Shown piece after piece: positions 1-63,330 of a stretch of DNA of 64,000 nucleotides. The DNA comes from Candidatus Nomurabacteria bacterium RIFCSPHIGHO2_12_FULL_42_19. GTDB lineage: Bacteria; Patescibacteriota; Minisyncoccia; Phycocordibacterales; UBA9973. Location of the stretch: contig MFUM01000004.1 of the NCBI GenBank assembly GCA_001786955.1, positions 4,457 to 68,456 of the forward strand, written 5' to 3'. The translations under genes and the position numbers were made by a program. The notes below the pieces were generated by a model that worked only from the letters and a program-made list of their open reading frames with translations, was not told the DNA's origin and did not search any database. Each line of letters starts with the position of its first letter. Positions within the stretch are counted from its first letter, which is position 1.

Positions 1-431
1 AGCTGGCCGCGAAAATCGGAAATATACGGCAGGCGGTCCCGGTCAAGCACATTAACAAATATTATGACTTTGCCCGGCCCGAAAATGTCGGACGGCAGGA
101 AACGGATACTGCCCCAGTCAATAAGCAGGCGCAGGTCGGATTCATGCTGCTGGCTGAAACCGCGGATAGAGGAGCCGTCAAAGGTCAGATTATTCGCCGA
201 GCCAAGCAGAAATTTTTTATCATAATCAAGCATATGAAAGCGGCCTTCCAGGTCCGTAAAGCAAAGCGTCACCGCCTTGATTCGTTTTTCTTTTTGCAGG
301 TATGCGCGATATTCTTTTTCAAGTTCCGCCGAGCTGGCCTTCTCCGCTCTATCTTGAGCGCGCAGGTTCATGGCCTCAAGCTCCCCGTAAGGAATTTCCA
401 AAAAGTTTTTCAATGCTTTATTATTTTCCAT
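1..431 (-). CDS. glnA: Glutamine synthetase, N-terminal part (partial; the gene continues past the window start)
   Basis: Minus-strand ATG at 431..429, open to position 1. Hand translation MENNKALKNFLEIPYGELEAMNLRAQ...VTLCFTDLEGRFHMLDYDKKFLLGSANNLTFDGSSIRGFSQQHESDLRLLIDWGSIRFLPSDIFGPGKVIIFVNVLDRDRLPYISDFRGQ. The FDGSSI(R/G)GF/W motif and overall pattern match the GS type I beta-grasp domain. The + strand ORF at 144..434 is antisense to this. Confidence 0.6.
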   Translation of the reverse strand, partial: MENNKALKNFLEIPYGELEAMNLRAQDRAEKASSAELEKEYRAYLQKEKRIKAVTLCFTDLEGRFHMLDYDKKFLLGSANNLTFDGSSIRGFSQQHESDLRLLIDWGSIRFLPSDIFGPGKVIIFVNVLDRDRLPYISDFRGQ

Positions 432-470
432 TGATTTTGCAAAATCACGTCGCGCAAACTCAATTAAAGC
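429..470 (-). promoter_or_regulatory. Conserved start-codon-proximal element, instance 1: hairpin GTCGCGC-N13-GCGCGAC followed by the perfect palindrome GATTTTGCAAAATC 1 nt before the ATG
   Basis: Minus sense reads GCGTCGCGCTTTAATTGAGTTTGCGCGACGTGATTTTGCAAAATCA-ATG. The same block recurs at 4336..4420, 12259..12310 and 63271..63330. Confidence 0.6.
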
Positions 471-705
471 GCGACGCTCTTTTATATTAATTTAATAAAT
501 ATTTAATATAATTAAATACTAAATTAAACTAATTATATACTATTTTTATATAATAGCTGTGGATAACCCCTCACATACGTGCACGTGAGGGGAAAATAAA
601 CAAAACCCCGCCTTACGGCGGGGTTTTGCGGCACATATACTGTCTATATAAAAATGTGAGAACACCTCACACTCACAAAAAGAGTATAGCATACTTGTCA
701 GAAAA

Positions 706-1656: not shown

Positions 1657-3060
1657 CTATTTAGGATCTCCGTTCCAGCCGAAAAGTTTCCCAATAGAAT
1701 CCGCGCTCTCGCGTTTGCGGGCGATTTTAATCATCCCGTCCCGGGCAATAATTTTTAGCGGTGTCGCCAGAAGACAATGATGCGAAGCCAGGCCGTCTTG
1801 ATACGCACCGGTATCCAAGACCGCCACAAACTGGTCCTGGTTGTCATGAAGCTTCGGCAAAAGAATATAATTTCCCCCAGCTGTGTATTTATCATCTGAA
1901 TCGCAAGTGCTCCCCGCTAGCCAGGTTGTTTTCAGGGCGCCATGCATATTGTTTGCCGGAATGACGTGGAACTTTTGGTGTATAGCCCAAGTATCCTTAA
2001 TGTCGTTCATAAAAGATCCGTCAATAATATACCAGGCTTTGGCATTCGCTTTCGGTATAAATTTTTTGGAAAGCACTTTGTAAATCGTCATTTCTGCCGG
2101 AGCCACGATGTATTGCCCCCACTCTACTATAAGATTTGGATGCCTGATTCCCGCTTTGTCTGATAAATTTTTAAGTATTTTGATAATCTTACTGGAAACT
2201 CCTTTAGCGGTATAAAATTTTTTCTTTTCATAAGGAATGCCAAATCCGCCGCCAATGTCCAGCGTATCAAGCGAAGGATGGATTTTTTGCAATTGTATAT
2301 ACATACTAAAAGCATGCTTTATGCCGTTTAAAATACTTTTTTGTGTTTTAATCTGCGACCCCAGATGGTAATGCATCACTTTAAGGTTTTTCATTTTGTT
2401 TAATTCAAGAGCATCTTTTTCTGAAAGTCCGAAACGGTCAAATTTTTTATCCCAATGCGAATCGGTTTTAATATTCAAATCTATCCGAGCTCCGATGTCG
2501 CCTTTATATTTTGAAAGCCTTTCAATTTCATCCAGACTTTCTATAATCGGCACAATATTCATACCTTTAGCGCGAAGTTCTTCTATTAAATCCAAATACT
2601 GGTCGGTTTTCGGGCCGTTGCAAAGTACGCGGATTTTGCTGTTGAATTTCTCTCCTTCCCAAAGTTTCTTTACAATCCAAAGCTCGTTGGCGGATGTCGC
2701 TTCCAGATTGGCGCCCTCGGAAAGGAGTGAAAGGATAAATTCCTTATTTTGATTCACTTTCATTGGATAGTGATAGAAAAATTTCCCCCGATAGCCGTAT
2801 ATTTTCATATAGGCTTGAAAATAGCCAATCAAGTCTTTTAATCTGTCTTCAATGATAAAAGGGAAAATTACCTGCAGTGGCGTGCCATATTTATACGCCA
2901 GGTCGCTTAAATTATAAATGTGATGGCCTTCAGTGGCTGTCAGTTCGCCGTCCTTATTGACACCGAAAAACTGGGTGTTGAATTCATCCGCTCCGAGCTT
3001 CCAAAATTTCTTCCAATTTTTCTGCGGTCTTTTGGGCTTTTTGGGTTTTTTCTTCGGCAT
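1657..3060 (-). CDS. speA: PLP-dependent decarboxylase, biosynthetic arginine decarboxylase (SpeA)-like, shortened, with a poly-Lys N-terminus
   Basis: 467 aa. Motifs HYPMKVNQ, VLCNGPKTD, HYHLGSQ, LDIGGGFGIPY and GSTCDSDD align with E. coli SpeA motifs YYPVKVNQ, VIVCNGYKD, HFHLGSQ, FDVGGGLGVDY and ITCDSDG. Confidence 0.65.
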   Translation of the reverse strand: MPKKKPKKPKRPQKNWKKFWKLGADEFNTQFFGVNKDGELTATEGHHIYNLSDLAYKYGTPLQVIFPFIIEDRLKDLIGYFQAYMKIYGYRGKFFYHYPMKVNQNKEFILSLLSEGANLEATSANELWIVKKLWEGEKFNSKIRVLCNGPKTDQYLDLIEELRAKGMNIVPIIESLDEIERLSKYKGDIGARIDLNIKTDSHWDKKFDRFGLSEKDALELNKMKNLKVMHYHLGSQIKTQKSILNGIKHAFSMYIQLQKIHPSLDTLDIGGGFGIPYEKKKFYTAKGVSSKIIKILKNLSDKAGIRHPNLIVEWGQYIVAPAEMTIYKVLSKKFIPKANAKAWYIIDGSFMNDIKDTWAIHQKFHVIPANNMHGALKTTWLAGSTCDSDDKYTAGGNYILLPKLHDNQDQFVAVLDTGAYQDGLASHHCLLATPLKIIARDGMIKIARKRESADSIGKLFGWNGDPK

Positions 3061-3091
3061 CTAAGTAAAAATAATTATAGCAAGTGCTGAT

Positions 3092-3130
3092 AAAATGTAA
3101 ACCCCCACATCTATATATAAGTGTGGGGGT
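3092..3130 (-). terminator. Intrinsic terminator after tgt (CCCCCACA-loop-TGTGGGGG plus a T-run on the minus strand)
   Basis: Hairpin at 3102..3129 followed by TTTACATTTTA in the minus sense. A TTTACA-16-TATAAT-like promoter for speA overlaps it. Confidence 0.55.
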
Positions 3131-3138
3131 AAAGGATT

Positions 3139-4338
3139 TTAGGATTTTAAATACCCTTTTAAAAATTCCTTCTTGAATTCAAAGAAGTTGTCGTCCAGGA
3201 TTGACTGCCGGATTTTTTTAACTAAATTAATAATGAAATACAAATTATGTATTGAAGCAAGAGTTGCGGCCAGTATTTCTTTACCATGAAAGAGATGGGC
3301 GAGGTAAGCGCGGGAATAGTTCGCGCATAAATAGCATTTACAATTCTCTTCAACCGCATTAAAGTCATTTTTATATTTAGCATTCATTATATTTATTTTC
3401 CCATTTTTGGTATAGAGTGAGCCATTGCGGGCATTGCGCGTCGGCGCAACGCAATCAAACAAATCCACGCCGTTTTCTATGCCCATAAACAAATCCTCCG
3501 GCTCGCCGATGCCGAGCAGATGCCGAGGCTTTTCTTCCGGCAATATTTCATTTACCCATCGGACCGCTGTCTGCATATCTTCCTTGGCAAAAGAGCCGCC
3601 GATACCAAAACCGTCAAAATCTAAACTCTTTAGAAAGTTTGCCGATTTTTTTCGGAGCGTTTCGTCTCTTCCGCCTTGCACAATACCGAACAATGCAATG
3701 TTGTTTTTTTTATTTAATTTATCATGTTCTTCTAAACTTCTTTTTGCCCAATTATGAGTTCGTTCCAACGCCTCTGTCTGATATCTAAAATCTTCCGCCG
3801 GGCTGGTGCACTCGTCAAAAGCAAAAATTATATCTGCGCCCAGGTTGTGCTGGATTTGGATTGATTTTTCCGGAGTGATGTAATGGATGCTGCCGTCCAA
3901 GTGCGATTTAAAAGAAACCCCGTCCTGTCCGATTTTAGCCAAACGAGGAGCACCAGAGTCATCAAAGCGTTCCGGAATCAACAAGGACGAATCGGTAATT
4001 TTTGTGATTTTAGAAACCTGCTTACCATAAGCTGCGCCCAGGGAAAAAACCTGAAAGCCGCCGGAATCGGTAATTATAGGGCTATTCCAATTCATAAATT
4101 TATGCAGACCGCCCGCTTTGGCTACCAACTCATCACCAGGCTGTAAATATAAATGATAGGTATTGGCTAAAATTACTTCAGCTCCCAGATCCCTAGCCTG
4201 CTCGGGGGTCAGAGCTTTCACGCTGGCTTTCGTGCCGACCGGCACAAAAGCCGGAGTCTGAATAACTCCATGCGCTGTAGTGATGACTCCCACCCTTCCT
4301 AAACAATTTTCCAATTTTTTCTCTATTTTGAAATGCAT
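3139..4338 (-). CDS. tgt: Queuine tRNA-ribosyltransferase (tRNA-guanine transglycosylase)
   Basis: 399 aa. Contains GVIQTPAFVPVGT, ITDSGGFQV, and a C-terminal zinc site CKCYLCANYSRAYLAHLF. Confidence 0.9.
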   Translation of the reverse strand: MHFKIEKKLENCLGRVGVITTAHGVIQTPAFVPVGTKASVKALTPEQARDLGAEVILANTYHLYLQPGDELVAKAGGLHKFMNWNSPIITDSGGFQVFSLGAAYGKQVSKITKITDSSLLIPERFDDSGAPRLAKIGQDGVSFKSHLDGSIHYITPEKSIQIQHNLGADIIFAFDECTSPAEDFRYQTEALERTHNWAKRSLEEHDKLNKKNNIALFGIVQGGRDETLRKKSANFLKSLDFDGFGIGGSFAKEDMQTAVRWVNEILPEEKPRHLLGIGEPEDLFMGIENGVDLFDCVAPTRNARNGSLYTKNGKINIMNAKYKNDFNAVEENCKCYLCANYSRAYLAHLFHGKEILAATLASIHNLYFIINLVKKIRQSILDDNFFEFKKEFLKGYLKS

Positions 4339-4420
4339 TGATTTTGCGAAATCACGTCACGCAAGTTAATTCTGATGAATTATGTCGTGTTCTCCTTTAA
4401 AACACGACCGGCGCGACGCT
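4336..4420 (-). promoter_or_regulatory. Conserved start-proximal element, instance 2 (before tgt)
   Basis: Minus sense reads GCGTCGCGCC...(nested hairpin)...TTGCGTGACGTGATTTCGCAAAATCA-ATG. The palindrome GATTTCGCAAAATC sits 1 nt before the ATG. Confidence 0.6.
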
Positions 4421-4421
4421 T

Positions 4422-5264
4422 CTATATTTCCACTTCCACGAATTTTAACTCCTGAATATTGACCGGGCTGGAAAGCAACGCTTTGGCAAAAGGATTGCGT
4501 GGGTCAGAGATTATCTTTTCAACAACAGCCAAAAGCAGAGAATTAATGCCGGGCAAAACCACCTGATCTCCTTTTTGCAAGATAAAATCTTTAGGCATTG
4601 TCATTTCAAAATTTCCCCCGCCCCGCCCGACAACTTCCATAAAAACATCCCCGCCTGCGTGAGCAGACCGACCCGCAATTATAGCCTGCGTTCTTTCTCC
4701 TGCATTTGAAAACAAAATTACTTTGGAAGAATTGTCATAAGCAAGGCTCACGCGCCCAATCGGCACATTACCTAGGGCAAAAACTATATTCCCCGTTTTT
4801 ACTCCCCTGTTCGTGCCCGTATCAATGATAAGCGTATCATAAGGAGATTGATTCGGTTTGGACAAAATAGCGGATAAAATCATCTTAACCTTTTCGTTTT
4901 TCCCTGCCTTGCCGACAGGCAGACGTCCTAAAATTTCCTTGATTTTTAAATTCTCATCCAAAATAGAATTGTAATTCGCTGTTCTTGCTTCTTGTTCGTT
5001 CAGTCTCAATTTCAAATCTTCATTTTCCCAAAGAAGAGATTTTTTGGAATAAAAATAGGAACCGGCATCTGATAATTTTCCATTTATGTTATTTCCTAAA
5101 ATTAAAACCGGGCGGAAAAGCCATCCGCTCATATAGGACAGCCCGTTAAAAATTCCCGTTCTGAAATAAAATAAAACAATCAAAACAAAAGCGCTAAGCG
5201 CAATATTTAAAAATTTTTTTCTTTTATTTTTTTTATCTAGGAGGTAGCTCATCTTGGTTGCCAA
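4422..5264 (-). CDS. mreC: Rod shape-determining protein MreC
   Basis: 280 aa. N-terminal TM segment, a coiled-coil region, then a beta-rich C-terminus. It lies directly downstream of mreB. Confidence 0.75.
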   Translation of the reverse strand: MATKMSYLLDKKNKRKKFLNIALSAFVLIVLFYFRTGIFNGLSYMSGWLFRPVLILGNNINGKLSDAGSYFYSKKSLLWENEDLKLRLNEQEARTANYNSILDENLKIKEILGRLPVGKAGKNEKVKMILSAILSKPNQSPYDTLIIDTGTNRGVKTGNIVFALGNVPIGRVSLAYDNSSKVILFSNAGERTQAIIAGRSAHAGGDVFMEVVGRGGGNFEMTMPKDFILQKGDQVVLPGINSLLLAVVEKIISDPRNPFAKALLSSPVNIQELKFVEVEI

Positions 5265-12107: not shown

Positions 12108-12258
12108 ATATTTTTCTTAAATTAATCCCAACGCTCTCGGGTCGGGACTCCGACTTTACATCGGGGTTAATAAAAAAGACCTTTATGTTAATACAGTTAT
12201 TATATCATATTCTTAAAATATGCTACAATGGTATATTACAAGTTAAATAGCAGAAGAA

Positions 12259-12307
12259 GTCGCGCTTCAATGGACAATTGCGCGACACGATTCTGCAGAA
12301 TCGAAAT
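12259..12307 (+). promoter_or_regulatory. Conserved start-proximal element, instance 4 (before the dsbA-like gene): GTCGCGC-N14-GCGCGAC then the perfect palindrome GATTCTGCAGAATC, then GAAAT-ATG
   Basis: Same architecture as the instances at 429, 4336 and 63271. The palindrome carries compensatory T>C and A>G changes relative to GATTTTGCAAAATC. Confidence 0.6.
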
Positions 12308-12991
12308 ATGCAAAACAATGACCAAAAACCGATAGCCGGGGCAATCCTTATCGTAGGGGTTCTCATCGCCGGAGCAATTCTGTTAAAAGACAGCAAGGCG
12401 CCAATAGTAAATGCACCAGCTGCAAACAATGAAAAAAATCCGACAACCGGAAGACCGGTCTCATCGGCTGACCATATAATAGGAAGCCTGAATGCAAGAT
12501 TAGTTATAGTAGAATATTCGGATCTTGAATGTCCGTTTTGCAAAGTATTTCACGACACAATGCATAAAGTGGTAGATAACAGCAACGGCAAGGTTGCTTG
12601 GGTGTTTAGGCATTACCCGATTCCCCAACTTCATTCAAAAGCTTTTCGCGAAGCCGAGGCCACGGAATGCGCTTGGGAGCAGGGCGAAAATGACGCTTTT
12701 TGGAAATATACAGACAGGTTGTTTGAGATTACTCCATCCAATAACGGCCTGGATGCGGCTTTACTGCCTGAGATTGCCGAATATGCCGGATTGAATGTCG
12801 CGTCTTTTAATGATTGTCTGGTTAGCGGAAAATTCACAAATAAAGTTCAAGCTGATATTGATGATGGAATCAAGGCAGGCGTAAATGGAACCCCGTCTTC
12901 TTTCATCCTGCAAAAGGGTTCCCGCGTTGATACTATCCCGGGTGCCCAGCCGTATGAATCGGTGATGCAAAGATTAAGCGAGATAAAATAA
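12308..12991 (+). CDS. DsbA-family thiol:disulfide oxidoreductase (thioredoxin fold, CPFC active site) with a signal anchor
   Basis: VEYSDLECPFCKVFH. Start set at 12308 (MQNNDQKPIAGAILIVGVLIAG) because the conserved leader element lies upstream. The ORF track's 12278 ATG falls inside the leader hairpin. Confidence 0.8.
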   Translation: MQNNDQKPIAGAILIVGVLIAGAILLKDSKAPIVNAPAANNEKNPTTGRPVSSADHIIGSLNARLVIVEYSDLECPFCKVFHDTMHKVVDNSNGKVAWVFRHYPIPQLHSKAFREAEATECAWEQGENDAFWKYTDRLFEITPSNNGLDAALLPEIAEYAGLNVASFNDCLVSGKFTNKVQADIDDGIKAGVNGTPSSFILQKGSRVDTIPGAQPYESVMQRLSEIK

Positions 12992-23501: not shown

Positions 23502-24236
23502 TTATCTATTTTTCTTCCATTCCTCTATTTTTTTGTGGTTTCCAGAGAGTAAAACTTTCGGAACTTTGTAATTTTTATTCTTATATTTTAAAACTTCCGG
23601 GCGGGTGTAAACTTCACTACTAGAGACTCGTTCTTCTTCTAGTGATTCATATTTACCCAAAACCCTGGGAATCTGGCGAGAAATTGAGTCTATTAAAACC
23701 ATCGCCGGTAATTCGCCTCCGGTTAAGACATAATCCCCTATTGAAATATCTTCTGCCTTAAATATCTTTTTGACCCGCATATCTATGCCTTCATAACGGC
23801 CGGAAATCAAAATAATATCGGTGTATTTTTTTACGGAATTTTTTGCATATGCCGTATTAAATTTTTTACCGGATGGAGAAAAATTTATTATTTTAATTCT
23901 AGAGCGTTTAGAAAGTGTTCTTGCGAATGGTTGACGTTGCGTAGTAGGAAATCCTGAGCGAGAACACTTTCTAAGAGCGTATTCAATAGCCTTTAGCATC
24001 GGCTCGGCTCTCATCACCATTCCCGGCCCTCCGCCGTAAGGCTTATCATCTACCGGGCGATACCCATTGTCTTTAACCCTCCTCCGCTTAAAAGCTTCGG
24101 ACGGGCGAGTAAAATCCCGCGGATTGTAAAATTTCACTTCTATCAGCTTGTTCTTCAGAGCCCGTCCGACAATAGACTCATTTAGGTATGAACTGAACAT
24201 TTCTGGGAATATGGTAATAATGTGAAATTTAATCAT
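23502..24236 (-). CDS. trmD: tRNA (guanine37-N1)-methyltransferase
   Basis: 244 aa. Starts MIKFHIITIFPEMF and contains YGGGPGMVM. Confidence 0.9.
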   Translation of the reverse strand: MIKFHIITIFPEMFSSYLNESIVGRALKNKLIEVKFYNPRDFTRPSEAFKRRRVKDNGYRPVDDKPYGGGPGMVMRAEPMLKAIEYALRKCSRSGFPTTQRQPFARTLSKRSRIKIINFSPSGKKFNTAYAKNSVKKYTDIILISGRYEGIDMRVKKIFKAEDISIGDYVLTGGELPAMVLIDSISRQIPRVLGKYESLEEERVSSSEVYTRPEVLKYKNKNYKVPKVLLSGNHKKIEEWKKNR

Positions 24237-36291: not shown

Positions 36292-38397
<2,106 letters not shown>

Positions 38398-62474: not shown

Positions 62475-62562
62475 GGCGGATGAGGTGGGATTCGAACCCA
62501 CGGTCCTTTTAAGGGGACGGCGGTTTAGTAAACCGCTACCTTAAACCACTCGGTCACTCATC
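62475..62562 (-). tRNA. tRNA-Ser-like, type II (long variable arm); the anticodon loop reads TTACTAA, giving an apparent ACU anticodon
   Basis: Minus strand. Acceptor GGATGAG/CTCATCC. D-arm ACCGAGTGGTTTAAGGT. Anticodon stem GCGGT/ACCGC. Variable stem GTCC/GGAC. T-arm GTGGG-TTCGAAT-CCCAC. G73. The anticodon call is uncertain. Confidence 0.7.
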
Positions 62563-62628
62563 CAATTTTTTATAATAACATAAGGGAGTATAGCAAAAAA
62601 AATGGAAAAATAGCATTAATATGCTAGA

Positions 62629-62800: not shown

Positions 62801-62889
62801 GGAGCCGTGTCTGAGCGGTCTAAGGTACATCTTTGCTAAAGATGCAGGGGCTTTATACCCCCTCGCGAGTTCGAATCTCGCCGGCTCCG
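62801..62889 (+). tRNA. tRNA-Ser (anticodon GCT), type II
   Basis: Acceptor GGAGCCG/CGGCTCC. Anticodon stem CATCT/AGATG with loop TTGCTAA. T-arm GCGAG-TTCGAAT-CTCGC. G73. Confidence 0.85.
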
Positions 62890-62907
62890 CATTGGGAAAA
62901 TAAAATT

Positions 62908-63273
62908 TTAGGCTCTTTTCTTTTTTAAACTTTTAACTGCTTTGTTTGTAATTCCTTTCCACTCGCTTTTTAATTTTTTGGCTAGAGCTTTGATGTCTTT
63001 CTCATGTAATTTATACTGCTTGGCATAATTTTCGGTTACAACATCTACCGCTTTGTGATAAACAGGAGCGCTGACTTTTTTAGCCTTTTTAACTTCACTT
63101 ATTACCTCTTTCTTTATTTTATCCATCAAGACTTTCGCTTTCTTTTGATGCGCCTTAGCCTTAGGACCAAATAAATAATACGCTCCGGCACCAAGCGCCG
63201 CTACTCCCGCTCCCACTGCCGCCATTTCACCCCCCGACATCCCCTTTTTTTTATTTGTATTATTTTTTTTCAT
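62908..63273 (-). CDS. Hypothetical Lys/Ala-rich protein with a Gly/Ala-rich TM-like segment
   Basis: 121 aa ORF, preceded by the conserved start-proximal element. Confidence 0.5.
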   Translation of the reverse strand: MKKNNTNKKKGMSGGEMAAVGAGVAALGAGAYYLFGPKAKAHQKKAKVLMDKIKKEVISEVKKAKKVSAPVYHKAVDVVTENYAKQYKLHEKDIKALAKKLKSEWKGITNKAVKSLKKKRA

Positions 63274-63330
63274 TTGATTTGATTTTGCGAAATCATGCCG
63301 CGCAACCGTCCGTTTTAGCGTAGCGTTAAT
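63271..63330 (-). promoter_or_regulatory. Conserved start-proximal element, instance 3 (palindrome GATTTCGCAAAATC 7 nt before the ATG; upstream hairpin degenerate)
   Basis: Minus sense reads TTGCGCGGCATGATTTCGCAAAATCAAATCAA-ATG. Confidence 0.5.

Follow-up and report, generated by a model that had tools for sequence, protein, structure and literature searches.

A dispersed two-hairpin repeat placed flush against start codons in Paceibacteria-type bacteria

Four unrelated genes in a 64,000-nt stretch of Candidatus Nomurabacteria bacterium RIFCSPHIGHO2_12_FULL_42_19 (contig MFUM01000004.1; hereafter the window) carry the same two-hairpin element just before the start codon, which raises the question of whether this element is a regulatory site, a translation signal or a piece of mobile DNA. 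An initial sequence-only reading had placed it, in sense orientation and ending 1–7 nt before the ATG, at four loci. Direct reading of the sequence confirmed this arrangement, each copy being sense to the next gene, as well as the identity of the downstream genes, which encode a glutamine synthetase N-terminus, TGT, a DsbA-like thioredoxin-fold protein and a Lys-rich 121-aa open reading frame (ORF) (sites 1 to 4, see Table 1). The order of parts is common to all four: hairpin 1 (GYCGCGC ... GCGCGRC), one purine as linker, hairpin 2 and the ATG. Hairpin 2 of the window copies is a 16-nt near-palindrome, Y-GATTYY-GC-RRAATC-R, with an AATC-to-ATG distance of 1, 1, 5 and 7 nt at sites 1 to 4, respectively. 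The palindrome pattern has four matches in the window against 0.53 expected, and none of 100 shuffles reached four. A covariance model (CM) scored the three simple window copies at 57–70 bits (E 1e-13 to 1e-16), and its scan of the 64 kb revealed no copy beyond the four sites and a degenerate one nested at site 2. The latter explains the long case among the hairpin-1 spacers, earlier described as N13/14 or longer. The range first proposed for site 1, 429–470, does contain a real element but clips its 5' arm, the copy being located at 432–476.

The block belongs to a family of dispersed ~45-nt repeats that is confined to ultra-small bacteria of the Paceibacteria type within the Candidate Phyla Radiation (CPR). 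One genome per GTDB species was searched with a degenerate 23-nt pattern that spans the 3' arm and hairpin 2, and at least 117 loci matched. About 100 of the listed matches have a complementary 5' arm, which the pattern had left free, and the remaining listed ones are high-GC chance hits without a 5' arm. Carriers among the listed matches comprise more than 60 Paceibacteria-type metagenome-assembled genomes (MAGs), titled Nomura-, Kaiser-, Yonath-, Taylor- or Adlerbacteria, Paceibacterota/Paceibacteria, Minisyncoccia, Parcubacteria or "Patescibacteria group"; some carrier MAGs deposited as third-party annotation (TPA) bear the label Saccharibacteria. The carrier genomes were examined as 8-kb pieces around the matches (loci labelled L###). 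Across 717 kb of these loci the CM found 107 copies, of which only about five fell outside the strict pattern; decayed copies are thus rare. The general unit of ~45 nt reads (C)GYCGCGC-loop(..GAC..TT)-GCGCGRC-R-[YGATTY-YGNN-RAATCR], and the consensus from alignment A1 is (C)GTCGCGC-yTnAAnGGACrnTT-GCGCGAC-R-YGATTYYGCRRAATCR. In IMG/VR only two matches appeared, both chance hits without a 5' arm, and a reading in terms of phage carriage was dropped. The Rfam gathering scan of the window returned tRNAs only, a scan of site 3 at E<=10 returned nothing, and no description was found in the literature on CPR repeats, on CPR translation signals or under the literal element sequences.

The pairing of both hairpins is maintained throughout the family. 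In A1, 93.7% of cells are in standard pairs, compared with 18–49% for slid-partner controls. Three pairs (4-29, 32-47 and 37-42, i.e. hairpin 1 position 2, the outer Y-R pair of hairpin 2 and an inner pair of hairpin 2) alternate between U-A in 66–71 sequences and C-G in 24–28, with almost no unpaired cells. What had been described as a 14-nt palindrome with a 5-bp stem is indeed a hairpin, but it has a 6-bp stem and a variable YGNN loop, and its outer flanking Y-R pair covaries (T-A 71, C-G 24). As the first search pattern fixed much of hairpin 2, an independent sample was collected from JGI/ENA metagenomes with a pattern for hairpin 1 only. It yielded 36–37 distinct genuine copies on low-GC contigs. 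Here, hairpin 2 is paired in 97–100%, five of the six pairs show compensatory changes, and the 4-nt loop varies (CGCA, CGTA, CGTT, CGAA, TGCT and others). One copy has a wholly different hairpin 2 (CGAATC-agca-GATTCG) and another a recoded hairpin 1. The compensatory variation claimed for the four window copies is supported by covariation in A1 and in the independent sample. The loop of hairpin 1 measures 11–14 nt and tolerates whole nested copies (inserts of ~40 nt). Column 21 of A1, in the 3' part of this loop, and column 38, the first loop base of hairpin 2, combine as A-U in 36, G-C in 35 and A.C in 14 sequences, which could reflect a loop-loop contact or merely subfamily structure.

These data bear on the proposal that the element is a DNA operator. 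The 16-bp near-palindrome TGATTTCGCGAAATCA does resemble operator and parS-type sites, and the marked genes include DNA-repair genes such as recA and ung, a methyltransferase gene, dnaG and gyrB. A double-stranded site for a dimeric protein, whether as regulon operator or as parS-like, nucleoid or uptake site, is nevertheless very improbable. At the centre of the palindrome lies a variable loop, and entire stems have been recoded with pairing kept, so the "palindrome" is a stem-loop rather than a symmetric duplex site. Moreover, the hairpin-1 loop differs in length and can take up inserts of 40 nt, copies are strictly oriented to the gene and some of them lie within ORFs, the marked genes are unrelated and relatives do not have the same set, and promoters do not overlap the element, their -10 boxes lying 9–60 nt upstream. 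Conversely, the compensatory variation fits a folded single strand, most simply mRNA. Folding is predicted at about -11 kcal/mol for hairpin 1 and at only -1.5 to -3 kcal/mol for hairpin 2, and the AUG is unpaired in the predicted folds. The weakest variant of hairpin 2 is found in 38 of 59 start-adjacent copies compared with 2 of 19 in-ORF copies (p = 0.0015).

The position of the element relative to genes is equally well defined. An ATG-led ORF begins within 8 nt of 58 of the 107 copies (54%), at a spacing of 1 nt in 14, 2 nt in 33 and 3–8 nt in 11 cases, and the start codon at start-adjacent copies is always ATG. The metagenome replicate gave an ATG at 1–2 nt in 25 of 37 copies and within 8 nt in 31. 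Among the other CM copies, six have an ATG at 11–30 nt, some 18–20 lie inside long ORFs and ~23 lie elsewhere, many of the latter directly after the stop codon of an upstream gene on the same strand and only about five antisense to their surroundings. Overall, ~95% of copies are sense to the flanking or host gene, so that the wide search revealed many loci in one orientation and not a few in random orientation. About one third of the start-adjacent copies take up the junction between a stop, 1–27 nt upstream, and the ATG, and the phase of the element relative to this upstream stop codon is random (5/14). Another third have a recognisable extended -10 box 9–60 nt upstream, which puts the element within the 5' untranslated region (UTR). 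Transcription would accordingly start before the element, as the initial reading required, and judged from promoter and operon positions the element is transcribed in sense with its host gene.

The same placement data can be read in terms of purely selfish DNA, with hairpins that serve only as single-stranded DNA for a copying enzyme like those of repetitive extragenic palindromic (REP) sequences with their REP-associated tyrosine transposases (RAYTs) or of IS200/IS605 elements, and with no role at the RNA level. Proximity to ATG would then result from insertion preference together with scarce intergenic space in compact genomes; intercistronic spacers in the window are 2–22 nt, so any intergenic insertion ends up near an ATG. 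Two observations argue otherwise: orientation tracks the gene and not the neighbourhood, site 3 being on the plus strand amid minus-strand genes, and the distance to the ATG is far tighter than that to the upstream stop.

More than 50 unrelated housekeeping genes are marked across more than 60 genomes, without a metabolic theme. They encode NusA (in five species), EF-Tu, L10, L7/L12, S12, RRF, RecA, GyrB, DnaG, UNG and HU, and further ATP synthase gamma, PNPase, aminoacyl-tRNA synthetases, SHMT, MurG, SecE, H+-PPase, ComM, transporters and small membrane proteins. The idea of a regulon joining nitrogen assimilation, queuosine and envelope redox genes had to be abandoned in view of this gene list, the in-ORF, nested and tandem copies, and presence or absence of the element between orthologues at 83–90% identity.

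How translation starts in these genomes is central to the meaning of the element. No Shine-Dalgarno (SD) motif was found at ~56 gene starts of the window, and at several window genes an extended -10 box ends 6–8 nt before the ATG, i.e. they are leaderless (e.g. ATGs 61487, 61064, 63587, 62391, 7563 (minus strand) and gyrB at 38391). A survey of start regions took in the window and ~100 related loci, with 616 predicted genes in total. In it, SD-like 4-mers were not enriched at -18..-4 (44 of the 616 genes, 43 in a control window), and -10 hexamers peaked ending exactly 6 nt before the ATG, in 80 genes over a background of ~8. The notion that the element occupies the SD position is hence moot. 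Judged by its start regions, the clade initiates without SD pairing and often without a leader. Where orthologues lack the element, they are leaderless, have an A+U leader or begin at overlapping stop/start codons; the element is interchangeable with all three at the same genes. Where it is present, the usual A+U spacer before the ATG is absent.

An alternative reading is that the element is a cis-acting RNA signal dedicated to recognition by a trans factor. Two forms may be envisaged. An endonuclease could cut at the 3' foot of hairpin 2, turning leadered or polycistronic transcripts into leaderless mRNAs while the hairpins cap the 3' end of the upstream fragment, or a global RNA-binding protein could gate initiation at all marked genes. 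The very sharp spacing (1–2 nt, always ATG) is in line with such a signal, as are the leaderless state of gyrB, UNG and rpsL where the element is absent, the tight packing of stop, element and ATG in operons, the loss of the A+U spacer, the strict maintenance of pairing in a very weak hairpin 2, the sense bias in every context, 3' UTRs included, and the core, highly expressed nature of many marked genes (EF-Tu, L10, L7/L12, S12, NusA, HU, RRF). On the other hand, ~19% of copies are in ORFs, where cleavage or blocking would harm, and ~20% are away from any ATG. The marked genes share no theme and are not the same in close relatives, a strange pattern for a regulon, and neither a candidate nuclease or binding protein nor an Rfam family match was found. 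We consider a dedicated signal possible, if doubtful. A bolder version, in which the element is a new type of translation-start signal for SD-less bacteria, a portable two-hairpin cassette spread in transposon-like fashion, with cleavage at the 3' foot of hairpin 2 to give leaderless mRNAs or with the AUG at the foot of the fold treated like a 5' end, strikes us as fairly improbable.

Several recognised signals were compared with the element and rejected. A sigma-70 promoter would have TGGACA/TTGACA of the loop at about -34, but there is no in-register -10 and the real promoters are upstream; element positions -12 to -7, where a leaderless sigma-70 gene has its -10, read TTTGCA or TCGCAA. The spacing of TGGAC..TTGCA is wrong for sigma-54. 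With a loop of 11–14 nt and a U-rich stretch that begins 4 nt after the stem, hairpin 1 does not qualify as an intrinsic terminator or attenuator, and a terminator scan did not flag it. For a boxA-like CGCUUUAA, a CsrA-type GGA loop and a T-loop UUCAAU, conservation is limited to some of the copies in each case. GUGAU could pair with the 3' end of 16S in one linker variant only, and the loci contain no 16S sequence.

Presence of the element is polymorphic between close relatives. The gyrB gene has the element in L043 (a Paceibacterota MAG) but is leaderless in the window, at 87.7% GyrB identity; hppA and comM orthologues differ in presence of the element at 89.7% and 85.9% identity, and so do those of UNG and rpsL. 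At mreC-tgt, relatives with 82–83% identity show overlapping or 1–5-nt junctions (aaaTAATGg, TAAaATG, TAAaaataATG), and in the window and a 97%-identical contig an 80-nt nested element is found between a new TAG and the ATG. Five dsbA-like orthologues, that of the window included, share the promoter TGCTACAAT and an A+U leader. In three of them (L246, L248 and L249) the ATG follows after 28–29 nt without the 44-nt element, and in the window gene this leader is joined by the 44-nt element, 5 nt ahead of the ATG. Comparison of filled and empty sites at mreC-tgt and at the dsbA-like gene did not reveal a consistent target-site duplication. The element has neither an internal gene nor a terminal inverted repeat. 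Copies are nested in the hairpin-1 loop at window site 2 and in L027, L034, L050 and L089, and a tandem copy is present in L094. At the nusA site, the element is shared by at least five species, and its stems are better conserved than its loop and upstream flank; as the region is 89% identical overall, this is a weak test.

Two side observations concern these loci. In L247 (~195–290), an unrelated CTAG/AGCTA-rich insert of ~90 nt sits at the dsbA-like site just before the ATG, and a similar sequence is found in L115 (~4790–4830) upstream of the element before EF-Tu (tuf); these genomes probably contain a second repeat family. In L094, inverted tandem element pairs (2504–2588 on the minus and 3040–3121 on the plus strand) flank a khpA-like KH-domain gene (PF13083) of an rpsP-khpA-trmD cluster. 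It is the one gene in the 8-kb pieces with copies on both sides, which may be fortuitous or may point to a binding partner.

The purely selfish alternative is favoured by nested and tandem copies, no target-site duplication, no internal gene, a different ~90-nt insert at the same spot in L247, in-ORF copies that appear to decay (see the possible relic in window trmD below) and the precedents of REP and of Rickettsia palindromic elements (RPEs) (PMC3733652, PMC10969869). Still, we find it rather unlikely. Few decayed copies were seen in 717 kb, and streamlined genomes should delete useless DNA. The strength of hairpin 2 depends on context, and the element persists at the nusA site in at least five species with its stems more conserved than loop and flank, albeit within a region of 89% identity.

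Copies inside genes follow their own rule. They occur within single Pfam domains (UDG, amidase/GatA, UvrD_C, CMAS methyltransferase, TrmD, MsrA, GroES and DAO) and in linkers of FtsK, a WbaP-like sugar transferase and the RecA C-terminus; alignment with orthologues without the insert locates the insertion points in variable loops. Each copy adds exactly 15 codons, with a peptide of the form (R/G)RAS(I/V)D(G/T)AR(H/R)D(F/S)A(K/E)S. The element has two sense and two antisense stop-free frames, and all in-ORF copies with long-ORF support are sense and in a single codon phase. Because the host ORF is never broken, the insert is most simply taken to be translated, by analogy with the RPEs of Rickettsia (PMC10969869). 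Within the window, trmD (23883–23972, minus strand) reads RSGFPTTQRQPFAR at the exact loop where the TrmD of L087 has an in-frame copy, and its DNA resembles a decayed copy (ACT ACG CAA CGT CAA CCA TTC GCA compared with ACT GCG CGA CGT GAT TTT GCA). This stretch is a possible relic; the similarity is weak and below CM detection. Separately, many Paceibacteria TGT homologues (P0013-P0103) have variable inserts of 20–60 residues after EHKKL. Several of these share SLS(T/V)P(A/V)G(V/T)ALPLGSS(A/V)CET, which looks like another in-frame repeat-derived peptide.

Taking these results together, we lean towards a miniature mobile element of the kind of REPs, RPEs and mycobacterial interspersed repetitive units (MIRUs) that folds in mRNA and is compatible with, and perhaps useful for, SD-independent initiation. 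We infer that the selected fold is an RNA fold, neutral to helpful for initiation. The element would behave as a non-autonomous mobile unit whose new copies arise in sense in transcribed DNA. Copying would probably be performed by a trans-acting, single-strand-specific enzyme, of the REP/RAYT or IS200/IS605 type by analogy (PMC3733652), because the element consists of hairpins and has no internal gene, terminal inverted repeat or target duplication. Copies would persist directly 5' of a start codon, either in a short leader or between a stop and the next ATG, but also right after stop codons, or in frame in protein surface loops as a hydrophilic insert of 15 residues. In the mRNA, a strong G+C hairpin would be followed by a marginal A+U hairpin whose last base is 0–1 nt from the AUG. 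Such a self-contained fold would prevent upstream sequence from pairing with the start region, leaving the AUG and the A-rich first codons open. The strong hairpin would be held off the AUG and the weak 16-nt A+U stretch would melt to become the 5' footprint of the ribosome. In this manner the element may take the place of a leaderless promoter, of an A+U leader or of overlapping stop and start codons without silencing the gene. The prevalence of the weakest hairpin 2 at start-adjacent copies and the missing A+U spacer fit this mRNA-fold model.

Several observations weigh against the mobile-element explanation. The pairing of hairpin 2 is kept despite its being barely stable, which a mere landing pad would not require, and the spacing has its mode at exactly 2 nt, a sharper peak than would be expected from a compatibility filter. 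Sense orientation extends to 3'-UTR copies, so the start-codon argument cannot fully explain the bias. All of the ~18 in-ORF copies use one of the four stop-free frames, for which peptide tolerance is a poor explanation. In the unconstrained 5' arm, A.C mismatches are about as frequent as G.U, so there is no RNA-strand signature. Orthologous FtsK copies in L025 and L082 differ as whole subfamily types, and part of the conservation could come from gene conversion between copies. Lastly, no trans-acting copying enzyme or binding protein was identified in the 8-kb carrier pieces.

The features of the window copies are collected in Table 1. At site 1, the upstream frame of glutamine synthetase is shut by TAA, without an earlier start codon. 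A strong intrinsic terminator (13-bp stem and U run) is located at 600–629 on the minus strand, ~125 nt upstream of copy 1, so the glnA promoter must lie within the AT-rich 477–599. Copy 2 occupies the junction from the mreC stop (4422–4424) to the tgt ATG, and its predicted RNA fold contains three hairpins, nested or adjacent; the TGT is 100% identical to that of Candidatus Nomurabacteria MAGs. The conserved promoter upstream of copy 3 places this copy inside the dsbA-like 5' UTR. Public calls begin the DsbA-like ORF (12278–12991, plus strand, P0121) at a TTG within the element, with a false 10-residue N-terminal extension, LRDTILQNRN, as a consequence. The 5' arm of copy 4 is imperfect (GCTACGC for a 3' arm GCGCGGC). 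Apart from the element, ARAGORN calls at 62475–62563 (minus strand) and 62801–62890 (plus strand) a class-II tRNA-Ser with the unusual anticodon ACT and a second tRNA-Ser(GCT); the tRNA-Ser(GCT) is not in the list of the Rfam gathering scan.

Table 1. Element copies and associated features in the window (positions 1 to 64,000)
Feature	Position	Strand	Basis or remark
Copy 1, 45 nt	432..476	-	sequence; CM 61.6 bits, E 3e-14
Copy 1 parts	GTCGCGC 469-475, 13-nt loop 456-468, GCGCGAC 449-455, linker G 448	-	
Copy 1 hairpin 2	432-447	-	T GATTTTGCAAAATC A, abutting ATG
Glutamine synthetase ATG	429..431	-	directly after hairpin 2 closing base; Pfam Gln-synt_N
Copy 2 (outer), 80 nt	4339..4418	-	sequence; CM
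Copy 2 arms	GTCGCGC 4411-4417, GCGTGAC 4356-4362	-	N48 between, then linker G
Copy 2 hairpin 2	4339-4354	-	T GATTTCGCAAAATC A
Nested degenerate copy in copy 2 loop	4367..4410	-	GGTCGTGT..ACACGAC at AATTCATCAGAATT; CM 29.8 bits, E 5.8e-6
tgt ATG	4336..4338	-	Pfam TGT 475 bits
Copy 3	12258..12303	+	CM 69.6 bits
Copy 3 arms	12259-12265 and 12280-12286	+	14-nt loop
Copy 3 hairpin 2	12288-12303	+	C GATTCTGCAGAATC G
Extended -10 promoter TGCTACAAT of dsbA-like gene	12221..12229	+	conserved among five aligned orthologous leaders
DsbA-like ATG	12308..12310	+	5 nt after AATC; Pfam Thioredoxin_4, DSBA; homologue N-termini MQNN
Copy 4	63280..63325	-	CM 57.5 bits; sequence
Copy 4 parts	5' arm 63318-63324, 14-nt loop 63304-63317, 3' arm 63297-63303, hairpin 2 63280-63295	-	
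Lys-rich 121-aa ORF ATG	63271..63273	-	7 nt after AATC

CPR bacteria, or Patescibacteria, are a large and mostly uncultured share of bacterial diversity, and to our knowledge their translation initiation is essentially unstudied. In one major CPR class, roughly 5% of genes carry the element as a mark, a 45-nt RNA or single-strand structure supported by covariation. In practice, gene callers place the start of some ORFs within the element, which yields false N-terminal extensions; the CM can be used to mask it and to flag true starts. If the element has a function in start selection or processing, SD-independent internal initiation becomes directly testable with a 45-nt cassette. In a wider context, it would be the second small mobile element found in nature, after the MIRUs of mycobacteria, to specialise in the 5' edge of ORFs, and it is a second case, after the RPEs, of in-frame palindromic inserts, here with a single-phase rule.

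Among known systems, the precedent closest to the element is the MIRU of mycobacteria, a lineage rich in leaderless genes, where such units "insert themselves at start codons" (PMC12548453) and do little damage to expression (PMC12548453, PMC3184786). The likeness extends to short dispersed repeats (40–100 bp) that are oriented with transcription and located at start codons or intercistronic junctions of a leaderless-rich lineage. MIRUs differ in forming variable-number tandem repeat (VNTR) arrays, whereas the present element consists of two hairpins and is unrelated in lineage and sequence. In MIRUs, expression is kept through an internal coupled mini-ORF at -4 nt (PMC12548453). No such mini-ORF was found by eye in any spacing class of the element: its stop-free frame has no start codon, and an ATG or GTG in the linker lacks a stop when in frame and a fixed stop when out of frame. 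By analogy, compact folding would take the role of the mini-ORF.

RPEs share with the element the palindromic repeats in frame in conserved protein genes, with the peptide in tolerated loops, and a reduced genome (PMC10969869, PMC3733652). As in RPEs, the ~18 in-frame copies in conserved ORFs add a conserved peptide. Still, RPEs are ~100–150 bp, belong to Rickettsia and are not concentrated at starts, whereas the element has 45 nt (15 codons), is restricted to Paceibacteria and lies mostly 5' of the ATG. REPs and bacterial interspersed mosaic elements (BIMEs) resemble it as G+C hairpins of 20–45 nt in many copies, transcribed in operons, with covarying stems, often CGTC at the 5' end, and no target duplication or internal gene (PMC3733652). 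In REPs, however, the location is mostly 3' of genes, inverted dimers are frequent, the tag is unpaired and the GTAG type flanks RAYT genes. Here, the leading C of CGTC is only ~50% conserved and GTC is paired in the stem of hairpin 1, a second hairpin (A+U) is an obligatory part of the unit, 54% of copies stand immediately 5' of an ATG and ~19% in ORFs, and dimers are rare, with a single inverted arrangement (L094). Two separate local hairpins, no terminal inverted repeat and no consistent target duplication likewise set the element apart from MITEs (miniature transposable elements bounded by inverted repeats). Hairpins in start regions, such as the phage MS2 operator and the fourU and ROSE thermometers, illustrate how a weak A+U-rich hairpin at the initiation region could gate ribosomes; these sequester the SD or AUG at single loci, whereas the present repeat is dispersed, has an unpaired AUG and lacks an SD. 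The element is therefore best filed as a new variant of small palindromic dispersed repeats of the REP, RPE and MIRU kind, a relative of these families in behaviour and not a member of any, since it departs from the defining features of each. What makes it unusual among them is its obligate two-hairpin anatomy, its start-flush placement in an SD-less CPR clade and its single-phase in-frame insertion.

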